Positions 5,076 through 42,587 of a DNA stretch of 64,000 nucleotides are shown piece after piece (the stretch's first letter is position 1; the number at the start of each line of letters is the position of its first letter). The notes under the pieces were generated by a model that searched no databases, was not told where the DNA came from, and was given only the letters and a program-made list of their open reading frames with translations. Where the stretch lies: contig CAZVDY010000067.1 in NCBI GenBank assembly GCA_964626235.1, positions 13,539-77,538 of the forward strand, written 5' to 3'. The position numbers were made by a program, and so were the translations under genes. The DNA is from an uncultured Desulfobulbaceae bacterium. GTDB lineage: Bacteria > Desulfobacterota > Desulfobulbia > Desulfobulbales > Desulfobulbaceae.

Positions 5076-5807
5076 ATGACGGATAATACGGACTTTGAAC
5101 AGGAAAACGGGCAAATAGGAGGAGTCTCCCTCGCCTCTTTCTTGCAGATGCTCGAACAGGAGAGAAAGAGCTGCACCCTCATTGTCAATGCAGGCAATAC
5201 GAGCGGCAGGTTCTTTTTTTCCAGGGGTGAGCTCATCGATGCCGAATTCGAGGATCAAATCGGCCAGGAGGCGGTTTTCACTCTCCTTTCCTGGAAGAGC
5301 CCTTCTTTCACTGTAGCCGAAGCCGAGGACCGGCTGCGCCGGATCAACCAGCCTCTGGCCCATCTCCTCCTCATCGCCGCCACCAGGCAGGATGAAAAAA
5401 AGAGAGAAGTCAACGCAGATGCTCTGGCTGATCCTGGAACCGCCATGCTCGACACCGGCCTGCATGCCAATCCGGTCCTGAAAAACCTGGTCACCACCAT
5501 TCTCGGCATTTCCGGCGTCAAGCACTATTACCTGCTTAACCGCCAGGGCAACATGATCGTCCAGTCGTCAAGAAACAAGAAGGCAGGAGACTTCATCACC
5601 TACTGCATCATTACCGGGATCCAGGTGCGGAAGGCCCTGCAGAGCAAGGGCCCGCGCCGGATCACCCTGTCCCTGAAAAATGGGGACCGACTCCTGATCT
5701 TTCCAGGTGCGGGATTTATCATCGGTCTGCTGATCGATGCCGATGCCCAGGTAGATGATGTCATGACCCAGCTGCGGCCCGCTCTGCTGAAAGGGCAGGG
5801 AACATAG
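5076..5807 (+). CDS. PATAN (DUF4388) domain protein with Roadblock/LC7-like C-terminal half
   Basis: SLASFLQMLEQERKSCTLIVNAGNTSGRFFFSRGELIDAEFEDQIGQEAVFTLLSWKSPSFTV matches the DUF4388/PATAN pattern. The C-terminal half (VKHYYLLNRQGNMIV...LLIFPGAGFIIGLLID) looks Roadblock-like. Confidence 0.6.
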   Translation: MTDNTDFEQENGQIGGVSLASFLQMLEQERKSCTLIVNAGNTSGRFFFSRGELIDAEFEDQIGQEAVFTLLSWKSPSFTVAEAEDRLRRINQPLAHLLLIAATRQDEKKREVNADALADPGTAMLDTGLHANPVLKNLVTTILGISGVKHYYLLNRQGNMIVQSSRNKKAGDFITYCIITGIQVRKALQSKGPRRITLSLKNGDRLLIFPGAGFIIGLLIDADAQVDDVMTQLRPALLKGQGT

Positions 5808-5810
5808 TCA

Positions 5811-6470
5811 ATGGATGCGCTGCTTAAAGATATATCTGTGATTCCAGGGGTATTGGGATCTTGTGTCTTTGACCGAAGCGATGGTCTGCTCTGCCGTGAG
5901 CAGCATCCTGTGCTTTCCGAGGAGCTGACCAGAACGGTGGGCAATCATCTCATCCGGTTGTTTCAGATGGCCGCAATCTGTGATATGGATATCCAGTCCA
6001 CGTCCTTTGATTATGAAAAATATGTGGTCGTGGCCCTGCCATTGCGGGAATTCACCGTCCTGTTCACGGTCTGCAGTTCCCAGGCCAACTGTTCCCTGGT
6101 GACCTCGACCGCCCAGATGCTGCTCGACGACATGCGCAAGGAACTCGAGCGGAGGACAGGGATCGCCATTGCCCTGGAAGATGATATCGAGGATCTGGCC
6201 GCCTTTGACCTGCTCAGTGAACAGGCCGAGACAGAGCAGGATGACGACCTGCTGCTCATCAGGCCATACCTGCGGCAGATCGAGCAGACCTTGGCCTCGG
6301 TCATCGGCCCGGTGGCTGCCATCGTGATGGAGGAGTATATCACCAAGTGGCGACAGGCCGGTCCGGCCAACAGGGAACGGCTGATGCTCCTGGCCACCAT
6401 GGCGAGTTCGGAAATAGACGATCCTGTCCTGGAAAAGGAGTTCATGCTCAAGATTGCCGATATGTTATGA
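5811..6470 (+). CDS. Roadblock/LC7 (MglB-like) domain protein with acidic linker and helical C-terminal domain
   Basis: N-terminus LLKDISVIPGVLGSCVFDRSDGLL...YVVVALPLREFTVLFTV fits Roadblock/LC7. Starts 3 nt after the previous gene and is followed by a strong terminator. Confidence 0.6.
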   Translation: MDALLKDISVIPGVLGSCVFDRSDGLLCREQHPVLSEELTRTVGNHLIRLFQMAAICDMDIQSTSFDYEKYVVVALPLREFTVLFTVCSSQANCSLVTSTAQMLLDDMRKELERRTGIAIALEDDIEDLAAFDLLSEQAETEQDDDLLLIRPYLRQIEQTLASVIGPVAAIVMEEYITKWRQAGPANRERLMLLATMASSEIDDPVLEKEFMLKIADML

Positions 6471-6500
6471 TGGCCATCGCTTCGAGCCGTATCTGCCGGG

Positions 6501-6536
6501 AGCCACGATCGGCTGCAACGCCGTCGTGGCTTTTTT
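6501..6536 (+). terminator. Rho-independent terminator
   Basis: AGCCACGA (6501-6508) pairs with TCGTGGCT (6524-6531), with an inner CGGC/GCCG extension, followed by a T6 run. Confidence 0.8.
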
Positions 6537-6572
6537 GCCCCTGGTCGGAACGAGGATATACAGACGGAAAGT

Positions 6573-7829
6573 ATGCATTACTCGAAATTTGCTGACAGAT
6601 TAACCGCAGACGGCGGTATCCTGTCGCTGATGAAGGACCTGGGCACGTGCCTGACCAGCAACTCCATGATCATGATGGGAGGCGGCAACCCGGGACATGT
6701 GCCGGAAATCGAGGCGCTCGTCGCAGACCGGCTTCTTCAGATTGCCGAGGATCCGGTTCAGGTCAGGCAAGTGGCAGGCCTTTACGATCCTCCCCAGGGA
6801 AACAAACAGTTTCGCGGTCTTTTGGCCGACCTGCTCAGGCAGGAATACGGCTGGGATATTACCGCTGATAACATCTGCCTCACCTGTGGCAGCCAGGGAT
6901 CGTTTTTCCTCCTTTTCAACATGCTGGCCGGACGTTTTGCCGACGGACGCAGGAAGAAGATCCTTCTCCCCTTGGCTCCGGAATACATAGGATATGCCGA
7001 CATTGGCCTGTGCGATGATTTTTTCGCCGCCTACCTGCCCGAGGTGGAGTTGCTCGATGGCCGCTTCTTCAAATACAGGATCAACTTCGCTGAACTGGAA
7101 ATCGGTCAGGACATCGGGGCTATCTGTGTTTCACGGCCGACCAATCCGACCGGCAACGTCCTTACCGACAGGGAAATGGAACGGCTGATGGAACTGGCTG
7201 CAGCCCATCGTGTTCCCTTGATCGTCGACAACGCCTATGGAGTTCCCTTTCCGGGCATCATCTTTACCCGGGCGACCCCGGTCTGGAACGAAGACCTCGT
7301 CCTCTGCATGAGCCTGTCAAAGTTCGGCCTGCCCGGCGCCAGGACCGGGATCGTCGTGGCCAGCAGGGAGATCGCCAGCCGGCTGGCCGCTGCCAATGCA
7401 GTGCTCAACCTGGCTCCGGGCAGCCTGGGTCCCATGCTTGCCTGTAACCTGGTGGAAAGCGGAGAGATTCTCAGGCTGGCCGACCAGGTGATCAGGCCGT
7501 TCTATCACCACAGGCTGACCAGGGCCCTGGAAGCGATAACCGCCTTGTTCAGTGACATTCCGTACCGGGTGCACCTGCCGGAAGGGGCAATGTTTCTCTG
7601 GCTGTGGTTCGACGGACTGCCGGTGTCCTCGGGTACACTTTATGCCCGTCTCAAGCAACGGGGGGTGCTGGTTGTCGCCGGACACTATTTCTTCCCTGGA
7701 CTGCAACAGGAGTGGTCTCACCGGCACCAGTGTATCCGGATCACCTACTCGCAGGATGAAGACCATGTCCACCAGGGGCTGGCCATCATCGCCGACGAGG
7801 TACGCAAAATCTATAGAGAAGGTGGTTGA
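6573..7829 (+). CDS. avtA: valine-pyruvate (alanine) aminotransferase
   Basis: End-to-end resemblance to E. coli AvtA as recalled: FADRLT..GILSLMKDLG, MMGGGNPGHVPE, LAPEYIGYAD, CVSRPTNPTGNV, DNAYGVPFPGIIF, CMSLSKFGLPG (PLP Lys), FLWLWF, HQCIRI. Confidence 0.85.
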   Translation: MHYSKFADRLTADGGILSLMKDLGTCLTSNSMIMMGGGNPGHVPEIEALVADRLLQIAEDPVQVRQVAGLYDPPQGNKQFRGLLADLLRQEYGWDITADNICLTCGSQGSFFLLFNMLAGRFADGRRKKILLPLAPEYIGYADIGLCDDFFAAYLPEVELLDGRFFKYRINFAELEIGQDIGAICVSRPTNPTGNVLTDREMERLMELAAAHRVPLIVDNAYGVPFPGIIFTRATPVWNEDLVLCMSLSKFGLPGARTGIVVASREIASRLAAANAVLNLAPGSLGPMLACNLVESGEILRLADQVIRPFYHHRLTRALEAITALFSDIPYRVHLPEGAMFLWLWFDGLPVSSGTLYARLKQRGVLVVAGHYFFPGLQQEWSHRHQCIRITYSQDEDHVHQGLAIIADEVRKIYREGG

Positions 7830-7830
7830 G

Positions 7831-9546
7831 ATGAAGTGGAAGCTTGTTTTGCTGTTGCTGCTGACCATGGTTCCCCACCTGGCTGCTGCCGGATGTCTGG
7901 AGGGAGACTGCCGAAACGGATCCGGTACTCTCCGCAGTCCGGATGGCCGTTATTATCAGGGGGAATTCAGGCACGGATTTCTTTGGGGGCGCGGCACCCT
8001 GGTCACTCCGGAAGGAATGCGTTACAGCGGGGAATTCGTCAAGGGCAAGTTTCATGGCAAAGGCACTCTGGTCAGTCCGGATGGTCGCCGGTACGAGGGG
8101 AGCTTTCGCAATGGTGTCATCGATGGCAAAGGCACCCTGACCACTGCCGATGGTCTGCAGTACAACGGAGAGTTCAGCCTGGGACGCTTCAACGGCAAAG
8201 GGTCGCTCTTTTTCCCGGACGGCAGGGAGTATGTTGGTGATTTCCGCAACAACGTCCTCCATGGACAGGGCAGGCTGACCTACCGGGACGGCAGCTATTT
8301 CGAAGGTGAATTCCGGGACGGCCAACCTGCCGGTCAGGGAACGCGGCGATACCTGGACGGCACCATCTACAGTGGCGAGTATCATGGCGACAAGCGGGAA
8401 GGCCAGGGTATCCTCGAGATGCCGGATGGCAGCCGGTACGAGGGGGATTTCCATAATGACCTGTACGACGGCCAGGGAAAACTGACCTACCCGGACGGCA
8501 GGGTCTATGCGGGTACGTTCAAGGCCGGTACCATCACCGGTACCGGTGTCATGACCTGGGCGGATGGACGGGAATACAGCGGAGAATTCGTCAATGGCCA
8601 GCCCGAAGGCCAGGGAGTCATGCGCTACAGCGACGGCAGCCGGTACGAGGGTCAATGGCATAACGGCAAACGGCACGGCACTGGCGTCATGCTGTATGGC
8701 GATGGCAGCCGGTACGAAGGGACCTTTGTCGACGGCAAACCAGAGGGTGAGGGAGTGATGCGCTATCCGGATTCCACGGTATTCAGAGGCCGGTTTCACG
8801 ACGGACAGCCTGTGCAGGAAGCGGCTGTCGGCAAGGAGCAGCGTGCCCAGCAGGCTGATCAGGCGGACAGTCAGCCACCTGTGGTTGAAGAGGTGATACC
8901 TCCCCGGCCCGCTGATACCGAAAACAAACTGACCCAGCGTAACGGCCTTGTCTATGGGGGGACAGGAAAGGACGAGCCATTCACAGGTCAGGGAAAAATC
9001 GTCTATGATGACTCCTCGGTCTACACGGGTGATTTCCGTGATGGCCGCCGCCATGGTCACGGGGTGCTGGAGCTGGCCAACGGCGACAGGTATGAAGGCG
9101 ATTTTGTCGATGGGGTGTTTTCCGGCCAGGGAGACTACACCTTTGCCGACGGCCGGCGATACCAGGGCGAGTTCAGGAATGGTAAACGTCATGGCCAGGG
9201 CCGTTACACCTATCCTGATTCCTCATCTTACCAGGGAACGTTCAGGAACGGTCGTTTCGACGGCCGGGGAATCTACATCTTTCCGGACGGCAGCCGGTAC
9301 GAAGGGGAATTCCGGGATGGTTTCTTCCACGGTCAGGGAACGCTTCAGTATCAGGATGGCAAGAAATATGTCGGTTCGTTCAAGGACGACCTGCCAGACG
9401 GTAAAGGTGTGCTGGAATCACCGGATGGTTCTGTTTTCGAGGGCAGGTTCAGGCGGGGCCGCCGGAACGGCCATGGCCGCCTCACACTGCCGGATGGCAG
9501 GGTGATTGAGGGCGAATTTCGGGACGACCGGCTTGTTGAGGAGTAG
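7831..9546 (+). CDS. secreted MORN-repeat protein (about 21 repeats)
   Basis: Signal-peptide-like MKWKLVLLLLLTMVPHLAAAG. Then 23-aa units of form Y-x-G-E/D-F-x-x-G-x-x-x-G-x-G-x-x-x-x-x-D-G-x-x. The track ORF opens at 7552, but ATG 7831 follows the avtA stop directly. Confidence 0.9.
   Translation: MKWKLVLLLLLTMVPHLAAAGCLEGDCRNGSGTLRSPDGRYYQGEFRHGFLWGRGTLVTPEGMRYSGEFVKGKFHGKGTLVSPDGRRYEGSFRNGVIDGKGTLTTADGLQYNGEFSLGRFNGKGSLFFPDGREYVGDFRNNVLHGQGRLTYRDGSYFEGEFRDGQPAGQGTRRYLDGTIYSGEYHGDKREGQGILEMPDGSRYEGDFHNDLYDGQGKLTYPDGRVYAGTFKAGTITGTGVMTWADGREYSGEFVNGQPEGQGVMRYSDGSRYEGQWHNGKRHGTGVMLYGDGSRYEGTFVDGKPEGEGVMRYPDSTVFRGRFHDGQPVQEAAVGKEQRAQQADQADSQPPVVEEVIPPRPADTENKLTQRNGLVYGGTGKDEPFTGQGKIVYDDSSVYTGDFRDGRRHGHGVLELANGDRYEGDFVDGVFSGQGDYTFADGRRYQGEFRNGKRHGQGRYTYPDSSSYQGTFRNGRFDGRGIYIFPDGSRYEGEFRDGFFHGQGTLQYQDGKKYVGSFKDDLPDGKGVLESPDGSVFEGRFRRGRRNGHGRLTLPDGRVIEGEFRDDRLVEE
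7954..8811 (+). repeat. tandem 69-nt (23-aa) MORN coding repeats, block 1 (about 12.5 units)
   Basis: Strict 23-residue periodicity from YQGEFRHGFLWGRGTLVTPEGMR through FRGRFHDGQP. Confidence 0.85.
8953..9543 (+). repeat. tandem 69-nt MORN coding repeats, block 2 (about 8.5 units)
   Basis: Resumes after a 47-aa Q/P/E-rich linker: YGGTGKDEPFTGQGKIVYDDSSV ... IEGEFRDDRLVEE. Confidence 0.85.
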
Positions 9547-41125: not shown

Positions 41126-41557
41126 ATGAAACAGCTTATCCGGGTCATGAAGGCCCTGTCCGATCCCAACAGGCTGCGGATCCTCAAACTGCTTGAAGGA
41201 GGGGAGCTCTGTGTCTGCGAAATCCAGAAGGTCCTGGAACTCGCCCAGTCCACCGTCTCCAGGCACATGAAACTGCTGGAAGATGCGGACCTGGTCACCA
41301 GGCGGCGGCAGGGAACCTGGATGCTTTACAGGTTGGCGGCGGCAGGAGAGAATCCCTATGCCAAGACCATGCTGGAACGGCTGGCCGGCTGGCTCGAGGA
41401 CGACGCAACATTGCACCGGATGCGGCAGGCCCTGCCGGAAGCGGCGGTCCTGCGCGGCTGTACACCCGAAAAACAGGAGAAGAGGAAGAACAATGGAACC
41501 CATTCAACCGACAGGATGCGGCTGAACCCGGGACAATACCGACCGGGCGGCCGGTAA
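41126..41557 (+). CDS. ArsR/SmtB-family transcriptional regulator
   Basis: ALSDPNRLRILKLLEGGELCVCEIQKVLELAQSTVSRHMKLLEDADLV (wHTH with an ELCVCE metal/metalloid-site-like motif). The last roughly 30 residues look like run-on sequence and overlap the next gene model. Confidence 0.8.
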   Translation: MKQLIRVMKALSDPNRLRILKLLEGGELCVCEIQKVLELAQSTVSRHMKLLEDADLVTRRRQGTWMLYRLAAAGENPYAKTMLERLAGWLEDDATLHRMRQALPEAAVLRGCTPEKQEKRKNNGTHSTDRMRLNPGQYRPGGR

Positions 41558-42587
41558 AACACCCATCGGGGCGGGAAAGGCCATCATCGTCGGCCTGCCT
41601 GCCCTCCTGCTCTGGCTTGCGGTCTACAGCCGGCTGGAACCTTTTTCCAGGTACCTGACCCATACACTGCTGCGGCTGGAGGAGGGCAGTCACCTGGGAG
41701 AAACGGTACGTTTTTTCCTTTATGACACCCCGAAGGTGATGATGCTCCTGACCCTGATCGTCTTCGTGGTGGGAATAATCCGCTCCTTTTTCTCCCAGGA
41801 ACGGACCAGGCGCTACCTGGTCGGCAGGCGTGAGCTGGCCGGAAACGGTCTGGCCGCCCTGCTCGGCATCGTGACCCCCTTCTGTTCCTGCTCGGCCGTG
41901 CCCCTCTTTCTCGGTTTTGTCCAGGCCGGGGTACCCCTGGGAGTCACCTTCTCCTTTCTCGTCGCCGCCCCCATGGTAAACGAGATCGCCCTGGTTCTCC
42001 TTTACGGTCTCCTGGGGTGGAAGGTGGCGGCGATCTATCTCGTCTCCGGCCTGAGCATTGCCGTGCTCGCCGGCTGGGTGATCGGTCGGCTGAACCTGGA
42101 GCACTGGATCGAGGATTGGGTGCGGGAGATGCGGGCCGGCCAGACCTTGACCTTTGAGAAGAAGCTGACCTGGTCGGACCGCATCGCCATGGGGCGCGAT
42201 GCTGTCCGGGAGATCGTTGGCAAGGTCTGGATCTATGTGATCGCCGGAATCCTGGTCGGTGCAGCCATCCACGGCTTTGTCCCCGAAGAGTTCATGGCCA
42301 GGATCATGGGCCGGAACAACTGGTGGTCCGTGCCGGCCGCGGTGATCACCGGTATTCCCATGTACTCCAATGCGGCCGGCATCGTGCCGGTCATGGAGGC
42401 CCTGCTGGGCAAGGGTGCTGCCCTGGGAACGGTGCTGGCCTTCATGATGAGCGTCATCGCCCTTTCCCTGCCGGAGATGGTCATCCTGCGCAAGGTGCTC
42501 AAACCAAAATTGATCGCCGTCTTCATCGCAGTGGTGGGCAGCGGCATCCTCTTCACCGGCTACCTGTTCAACCTGCTCATTCCCTGA
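41493..42587 (+). CDS. ArsP/DUF318-type permease; model requires read-through of an in-frame TGA at 41523-41525 (selenocysteine candidate)
   Basis: Family motifs VTPFCSCSAVPLFLGF and FFLYDTPKV. The conserved TM1 region (41526-41735) has no ATG/GTG/TTG start. The same frame carries ATG 41493 with a purine-rich RBS, then M-E-P-I-Q-P-T-G-C-G-TGA. The uncontroversial part is 41736-42587. Confidence 0.55.

Follow-up and report, generated by a model that had tools for sequence, protein, structure and literature searches.

The stretch of DNA analysed here, 64,000 nucleotides (nt) from an uncultured Desulfobulbaceae bacterium (hereafter the window), carries on its forward strand a gene for a permease of the ArsP_1 family, directly behind and partly overlapping a gene for an ArsR-family regulator. 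The eleventh codon of the permease gene is an in-frame TGA, which the original prediction, made from the letters of the DNA alone, had proposed to be read as selenocysteine (Sec, U). The features that matter for this proposal are the following.

41126..41557, forward strand: ArsR/SmtB-family metalloregulator gene with the ELCVCE motif (Pfam HTH_5; NCBIfam NF033788, 98 bits against a cut-off of 55).
41482..41488, forward strand: purine-rich, Shine-Dalgarno-like GAGGAAG, by direct reading of the sequence.
41493..42587, forward strand: full-length ArsP_1/PF03773 permease gene, 364 codons plus stop, with the TGA at 41523 taken as Sec.
41493..41522, forward strand: ten N-terminal codons, translated as MEPIQPTGCG and including Cys9 (TGC, 41517-41519) and Gly10, conserved in Cys-form and TGA-form homologues.
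41523..41525, forward strand: in-frame TGA, the proposed Sec codon, residue 11, at the second position of the C-x-C/C-x-U motif.
41542..41555, forward strand: hairpin with stem ACCGG (41542-41546), loop GCGG (41547-41550) and stem CCGGT (41551-41555).
41580..41627, forward strand: first predicted transmembrane helix (TM1), residues about 30-45, IIVGLPALLLWLAVY, by hydropathy analysis.
41883..41891, forward strand: intramembrane Cys-Ser-Cys motif (TGT TCC TGC) within TPFCSCS, both cysteines with ordinary codons.

Reading of the sequence placed the ATG at 41493, its purine-rich ribosome-binding site, the peptide M-E-P-I-Q-P-T-G-C-G and the TGA exactly where the original prediction had put them, and GAGG-type motifs also precede the ATG in two related loci described below (L010 and L011). 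Behind the TGA at 41523-41525 the frame stays open until the terminal TGA at 42585-42587. The mechanical list of open reading frames (ORFs), which accepts ATG, GTG and TTG as starts, opens this frame first at GTG 41736, and therefore no standard start occurs among the 70 codons of 41526-41735; the list and the translation together bore out the prediction of an open but startless frame. TM1 is thus translatable solely by read-through of the TGA, since no standard start lies between it and 41736. The Pfam ArsP_1 model matched the read-through protein with 269.9 bits (cut-off 32.3) over profile positions 1-293 of 294 and residues 67-360, so that profile position 1 falls on residue 67, 15 residues upstream of GTG 41736, and TM1 lies further upstream still. 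GTG 41736 is not the true start, because both the ArsP_1 match and the hydrophobic helix begin ahead of it. W41 and Y45 of the TM1 region are invariant in the alignment of homologues, and so are C131, S132 and C133 of the intramembrane motif. The gene structure requires read-through of the TGA at 41523. The permease mRNA would use UGA once for Sec and once, about 1,060 nt further on (42585-42587), as the stop.

The read-through protein (364 amino acids), with Cys in place of the stop, was used as the query against a large protein collection and found more than 100 homologues of 363-367 amino acids, with 72-77% identity and 100% coverage of the query, from Desulfobulbus, Desulfocapsa, Desulforhopalus and Electrothrix-type metagenome-assembled genomes (MAGs). 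Their N-termini read MEPIQPxGC-x-C, and the second Cys aligns with the TGA of the window. In an alignment of 52 sequences, 51 of them homologues, conservation is at least 90% at both C9 and C11, and the TGA falls in the column of C11. The comparison of orthologous N-termini by which the prediction could be judged thus came out in its favour: a Cys aligns with the TGA, conservation spans the stop, and the orthologues do not start downstream of it. Judged from these alignments, the TGA of the window and the Cys of its homologues are a Cys/Sec pair. A cluster of cysteines in the N-terminal tail is present in 88 of 155 distinct loci (C-x-C in 58, CC in 24 and C-x-U in 6), and 53 loci have no Cys there.

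One objection is that the TGA came about through faulty sequencing or assembly, or through a recent nonsense mutation of TGC to TGA, and that the permease is a pseudogene or an N-terminally truncated protein. TGA is a single base from TGC, most relatives carry TGC or TGT at this codon, and the public annotation starts the gene downstream, the call for the window permease (P0116) being a truncation of 281 amino acids. However, the same codon recurs elsewhere. Related loci were obtained from a scan of species-representative genomes (L010 and L011, both from Desulfocapsaceae MAGs), from a metagenome scan (L093) and from the DNA behind the two closest relatives, P0055 and P0117 (L001-L008). The latter are eight contigs from different samples, at least 8 in number, including NCBI assembly GCA_054028855.1, and they read ATG GAA CCT CTG CAA CCC ATT CAA TCC ACA GGC TGC GGC TGA, with the TGA of L001 at 5977. 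Cys-Gly-TGA stands at the identical position in L001-L008, L010, L011 and L093, always as TGA and never as TAA or TAG. In total the TGA was found in 13 contigs besides the window (L001-L011 and L093), of which L009 represents the sequence of the window in another assembly, and counting the window there are five TGA lineages. Among genomes, Desulfocapsaceae and Desulfobulbaceae MAGs gave the best matches.

The amino acid identity is 78-81% between the window and the other TGA forms and 78-92% among all TGA forms, and the G+C content of the locus is 59% in the window and 47-51% in the other TGA lineages. Over the ten upstream codons, the window differs from the other TGA lineages by 3-6 synonymous changes against 1 non-synonymous change (6 and 1 against L011), and because the codon differences are mostly synonymous, the short upstream peptide is under selection at the protein level in the TGA genes. 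The recurrence of the TGA across lineages, together with the selected upstream codons, therefore rules out a private nonsense mutation as well as a sequencing error. An assembly error or a pseudogene, which would have undone the prediction, is contradicted by a TGA shared with 13 other contigs and by five lineages of very different base composition. As the TGA occurs in contigs assembled independently from several samples and in four further lineages whose synonymous divergence is saturated, as the flanking codons are still under protein-level selection, as a hairpin co-occurs specifically with the TGA (see below), and as a start at GTG 41736 would cost the protein 15 residues of the conserved domain as well as TM1, we regard a defective gene as extremely improbable.

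A hairpin just downstream of the TGA, as expected of a bacterial selenocysteine insertion sequence (SECIS; bSECIS for the bacterial type), was found in all five TGA lineages. With positions counted from the U of UGA, the stems and loops are the following.

Window: stem ACCGG / CCGGU (nt 20-24 / 29-33), loop GCGG at nt 25-28.
L001: stem UCUGGUC / GACCGGA, loop AGUU at nt 23-26.
L010: stem UCAGCC / GGCUGA, loop AGGC at nt 23-26.
L011: stem UCAGCC / GGCUGA, loop AGUC at nt 23-26.
L093: stem UCGGCC / GGCCGA, loop AGGU at nt 23-26.

An A-run follows the hairpin in every one of them. The published bSECIS consensus has a loop of 3-9 nt with G in one of its first two positions, an upper stem of 4-16 base pairs (bp), 16-37 nt from the UGA to the loop, and a minimum free energy (MFE) of -7.5 kcal/mol or lower (PMC13188914, Fig. 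2A), and the hairpins of all five TGA lineages lie within these limits. The window has a 5-bp stem, a spacing of 21 nt between UGA and loop and a local MFE of -12.3 kcal/mol, and the other four lineages have stems of 6-7 bp, a spacing of 19 nt and local MFEs of -10 to -13.3 kcal/mol. Since the MAFFT alignment did not keep the hairpins in structural register, the pairs were tabulated by script; in that register all lineages form the five inner pairs, at each of which 2-3 types of pair occur, and a clean compensatory double change from A-U to G-C separates L010 and L011 from L093. Shuffled sequences reached the observed hairpin energy in 23 of 1000 cases for the window and in 1-14 of 1000 for the other lineages. 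As a control, the Cys forms showed a contiguous hairpin of at least 5 bp within nt 12-40 in only 6 of 59 distinct sequences, and the nearest Cys relatives of each TGA clade form only 0-4 of the 5-7 corresponding pairs. The SECIS of Escherichia coli fdhF served as a positive control (its sequence is 100% identical to entries under fdhF in 5,413 records) and has a 4-nt GGUC loop at nt 22-25, compared with nt 23-26 in four of our lineages and nt 25-28 in the window. It resembles the hairpins described here as an intragenic hairpin 3' of a Sec-UGA, with a 4-nt loop in which G is followed by U or G; it differs in that there is no sequence similarity, its stem is longer and has a bulged U, and the loop of the window is GCGG.

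The original prediction had named two alternative hairpins behind the TGA. Both are present, CCCGG/CCGGG at 41527-41531/41543-41547 and ACCGG-GCGG-CCGGT at 41542-41555, and they are mutually exclusive. The hairpin at 41542-41555 is preferred because the one at 41527-41547 has no counterpart in the other TGA lineages, and the latter was rejected as a SECIS for this reason; comparative support thus extends to only one half of this part of the prediction.

The Cys forms nearest to the clade of L010, L011 and L093 (L028 and L022) carry UCGACC-aggc-AGCCGA at nt 17-32 after their TGC, a sequence of evident homology to the hairpin but with two mismatches in the 6-bp stem. It may be a SECIS decaying after a reversion from Sec to Cys, or else a precursor of one. 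Hairpin integrity that tracks the codon, with partly decayed hairpins in neighbouring Cys forms, makes this family a tractable case for the gain and loss of a SECIS within a coding sequence.

Could the TGA instead be a genuine stop? MEPIQPTGCG would then be a ten-residue leader (an upstream ORF), with re-initiation at ATC or CTG downstream and a regulatory role for the hairpin. An in-frame ATG before TM1 exists in L010 and L011, and a TTG and an ATG in L001, so a protein lacking the tail is possible there; a hairpin could in principle modulate re-initiation. In the window the 3' tail of the arsR-family gene runs over the start of the permease gene, the TGA and the hairpin, its TAA stop (41555-41557) lying in the 3' arm of the hairpin, and this overlap, which was predicted at 65 nt and is confirmed by the arsR ORF at 41126-41557, makes coupled translation conceivable. 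On the other side, the window offers no ATG, GTG or TTG for 70 codons past the TGA, the same peptide is the plain N-terminus of a single ORF in the Cys-form relatives, no start codon or Shine-Dalgarno sequence behind the hairpin is conserved across the lineages, and the distance, loop size and loop G of the hairpin match both the SECIS consensus and fdhF. A leader peptide is therefore very unlikely in our judgement.

The remaining alternative accepts the full-length product and dispenses with the Sec machinery: the UGA would be read by near-cognate suppression, as Trp or Cys, and the permease would be a non-selenoprotein. The gene structure and its conservation strictly require the full-length product only, and no sel genes were found in the 64 kb of the window, both of which agree with suppression. 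But leaky read-through is inefficient and does not account for a hairpin that is conserved, covaries, keeps the SECIS distance and is missing from the Cys forms, the codon replaces a conserved Cys as in a classic Cys/Sec pair, and related organisms are rich in selenoproteins. The cultured genus Desulfotalea belongs to the same order. Desulfotalea psychrophila is reported to have 12 selenoproteins, and 10 of the 11 Deltaproteobacteria covered by the same study were selenoprotein-rich (PMC1794560). Suppression by other means thus seems a slight possibility, to which we give little weight.

Taken together, the Cys pair, the recurrence of the TGA and the covarying hairpin strongly support the predicted recoding in a C-G-U motif starting from ATG 41493, and we consider it very probable that the permease gene at 41493-42587 reads its eleventh codon, the UGA at 41523, as Sec. 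Translation would start at AUG 41493, and the hairpin at 41542-41555, 19-33 nt further on, would recruit SelB with Sec-tRNA(Sec) to the UGA at 41523, as in other bacterial selenoprotein mRNAs, after which the ribosome would go on to translate TM1 and the remaining transporter. Sec would accordingly be inserted at residue 11 in a SelB-dependent manner, and the product would carry the N-terminal motif Cys9-Gly10-Sec11 in place of the Cys-x-Cys of most relatives.

Several observations weigh against this conclusion. The 64-kb window holds no selA, selB, selC or selD and no other selenoprotein gene. In the 60-nt fold of the window the competing hairpin at 41527-41547 is favoured, the bare energy of the preferred hairpin is only -7.3 kcal/mol, and its GCGG loop has G-C and not the commoner G-G or G-U. 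Rfam gave nothing relevant, neither for the whole window at gathering thresholds nor for 41400-41700 with permissive settings; Rfam has no general bacterial SECIS model, so this null result is uninformative. Within the L001 group a G-to-A variant at nt 19 (Gly to Ser) creates an A·C mismatch halfway along the stem. This variant is present in L003 (position 5995), L004, L006, L007 (position 5947) and L008, including the NCBI MAG, and in L003 and L007 it shifts the local MFE from -10.0 to -5.8 kcal/mol, outside the published energy limit; it is also a ready-made natural test of the stem stability needed for Sec insertion. Haft & Gwadz work with a criterion of at least ten independent candidate examples. 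The TGA is universal and the similarity runs through U, as they further ask, and the five lineages, found in two collection scans, fall short of ten, which is a limit of sampling and not contrary evidence. Two further points concern function: the functional model proposed below draws on context and analogy, and the topology is predicted from the positive-inside rule only, the structure model being poor.

Further selenoprotein genes were also sought around the locus. No tRNA was found in the window, and a map based on the periodicity of GC by codon position showed no other convincing TGA-bridged gene there; a screen for TGA-bridged frames based on GC at third codon positions was too noisy, and a greedy map of longest ORFs chose antisense shadows. 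No known selenoprotein genes were found among the neighbours of the L010, L011 and L093 permeases.

A neighbour-joining tree was built from the conserved body of the protein with 100 bootstrap replicates. The TGA forms stand in three places among the Cys forms and were monophyletic in 0 of 100 replicates, and L010, L011 and L093 were grouped in 96. As the TGA forms are never monophyletic, at least three switches between Cys and Sec, in either direction, are implied by this tree. The window and L010 share CC[A/G]GGCGGC at equal distance from the UGA, and because of this shared stretch the hairpin region of the TGA forms may have a partly common ancestry.

The calls for P0055 (348 amino acids) and P0117 (332 amino acids), which share 79-80% identity with the window protein, are truncated like that of P0116, and the public calls are N-terminally truncated for all TGA-form loci found, with the loss of TM1 or of the metal-binding tail. 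The protein is mis-annotated as truncated in every public record found. Recognition of the Sec codon corrects models of 281, 332 and 348 amino acids to about 364 and would supply pipelines of the NCBI type with a new family. The Joint Genome Institute call for P0055, on a contig of the L001 type, starts at a TTG (L001 position 6001) inside the loop and 3' arm of the hairpin (CAG TTG ACC), which shows how gene callers patch over a Sec codon. The opposite error is found in P0034 and P0107, whose N-termini are over-extended to 404 and 398 amino acids.

Sec forms are already known elsewhere in this superfamily, and what is new here, and well supported, is a different subfamily and a Sec site in the N-terminal tail. 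According to a 2026 review of prokaryotic selenoproteomes, the sole Sec form of the superfamily is the SO_0444 family (NF033936, motif UxC), on the basis of annotation only, and Haft & Gwadz described, for Desulfomonile tiedjei and its closest homologues, the replacement of the intramembrane CSC by USC. The SO_0444 Cu/Zn efflux proteins (NF033936; D. tiedjei WP_014809615.1) resemble the window permease in that they belong to the PF03773/TCDB ArsP superfamily, are deltaproteobacterial, and have Sec in place of one Cys of a vicinal Cys-x-Cys metal-binding motif. They differ in that their Sec is in the intramembrane USC, whereas the CSC of the window has ordinary Cys codons (TGT-TCC-TGC, 41883-41891) and its Sec is residue 11, in the N-terminal tail ahead of TM1, as C-x-U and not U-x-C. 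The window protein scored 104.1 bits against NF033936, and because the equivalog cut-off is 300 it is not a member of the SO_0444 family. The best-scoring NCBIfam model was that of SaoE, the CD2367 family efflux transporter (NF040736), with 145.3 bits, also below its equivalog cut-off of 325. SaoE shares its fold family and its CSC motif with the window permease, and a TPFCSCS-type motif is a hallmark common to the SaoE and SO_0444 efflux families (Haft & Gwadz); in contrast to the window permease, the SaoE family is reported without selenoproteins (Haft & Gwadz) and always stands with the SAO ATP-binding cassette (ABC) system, which is absent here.

ArsP of Campylobacter jejuni, a methylarsenite/roxarsone efflux permease, belongs to the same Pfam family as the window permease, which bears its name, and is encoded with an ArsR regulator in an ars operon. 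One of its membrane helices contains a conserved vicinal Cys pair. An N-terminal tail with Cys or Sec is not known from it, the two proteins being compared by description only. HgcA (Haft & Gwadz 2022) offers another parallel, with Sec next to Cys near the N-terminus, an annotation truncated at the TGA and a soft metal or metalloid as the object of the protein; in the HgcA selenoproteins a CU motif was located in an N-terminal extension that had been overlooked before (Haft & Gwadz 2022). HgcA, however, is no transporter but an unrelated corrinoid methyltransferase, and it has CU where the window protein has CxU. The selenoprotein transporters in the literature are MerT-like proteins, a cation-transporting ATPase, YeeE/YedE, SaoP with SaoB and SaoX, and SO_0444, and the literature searched contained no link of selenocysteine to COG0701, UPF0718, DUF318, YraQ or PF03773. 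Selenoprotein transporters are rare, and the present family would add to them a secondary permease of the ArsP type with Sec outside the membrane, in a C-x-U tail.

The proposed substrate of the permease is a thiophilic metalloid or metal, most likely an arsenic species: efflux of this kind is proposed from the ArsR context, the ArsC-like gene of the L001 group (see below), the CSC motif and the tail. The loop between TM2 and TM3, ERTRRYLVGRRE, carries five Arg/Lys, and by the positive-inside rule this loop, and hence the N-terminal tail, should be cytoplasmic. No homologue with a solved structure was found, and the AlphaFold model of the Cys homologue P0004 was poor (predicted local distance difference test, pLDDT, 52.6; predicted template modelling score, pTM, 0.40), with an unstructured N-terminal tail; only the lack of structure in residues 1-26 was used from it. 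We suggest that the tail is a short, unstructured, cytoplasmic capture site for soft metals or metalloids of the arsenic type. An accessory role in substrate capture fits, because the cluster of cysteines in the tail is common but optional among the 155 distinct loci. The C-G-U motif would then have a redox or metal role; the tail with Sec11 would hand the substrate to the invariant intramembrane Cys-Ser-Cys pair, Sec being a more reactive ligand than Cys, and the adjacent ArsR-family repressor would control expression of the permease. This points to the use of selenium for binding or hand-off of soft metals and metalloids, and not for catalysis.

A broader scheme is possible, if on balance doubtful: the N-terminal tail would have switched between Cys and Sec at least three times, the weakly conserved linker codons just behind it each time being made into, or decaying from, a SECIS with a different stem, and Sec would act as a capture ligand on a flexible cytoplasmic tail and not as a redox catalyst. 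If true, the family would be a compact natural model both for the origin of a SECIS inside a coding sequence and for non-catalytic selenium in metalloid efflux.

As for the neighbourhood, an ArsR/SmtB-family gene with the ELCVCE motif adjoins the permease upstream in every lineage examined, and in L001-L008 and L010 it lies directly upstream without overlap. With 143 amino acids, compared with 120 in the L001 group, the arsR-family ORF of the window is the longer one by about 23 residues; it ends ...LRGCTPEKQEKRKNNGTHSTDRMRLNPGQYRPGGR, and its tail crosses the permease start in another frame (41493-41557). Ribosomes terminating on the arsR gene of the window would melt the SECIS-like hairpin. 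A thioredoxin-type ArsC-like gene is present upstream in the L001 group only, with a score of 137 bits, below the cut-off of 174, and no further ars genes were found near the permease copy of the window.

Downstream of the permease, the TGA-form locus L011 has a small ORF of 126 amino acids (5435-5815), beginning MTPNQTSCGCACSS, with an N-terminal Cys-x-Cys-x-Cys cluster and no match in NCBIfam. In L010 the region after the permease (5799-8162) encodes proteins that resemble, by eye, FmdE-like, TauE/SafE-type membrane and cation-diffusion-facilitator proteins; the FmdE-like ORF, the one of these that was searched, had no NCBIfam match. If the assignments by eye hold, these ORFs hint at a broader metal-handling cluster that is not strictly for arsenic. 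Elsewhere in the window, the codon-position periodicity of GC is weaker in ORFs over roughly the first 29 kb, and the segment 16001-28000 has a G+C content of about 54%, compared with 58-63% in the remainder; this segment may represent a foreign island or another expression class.

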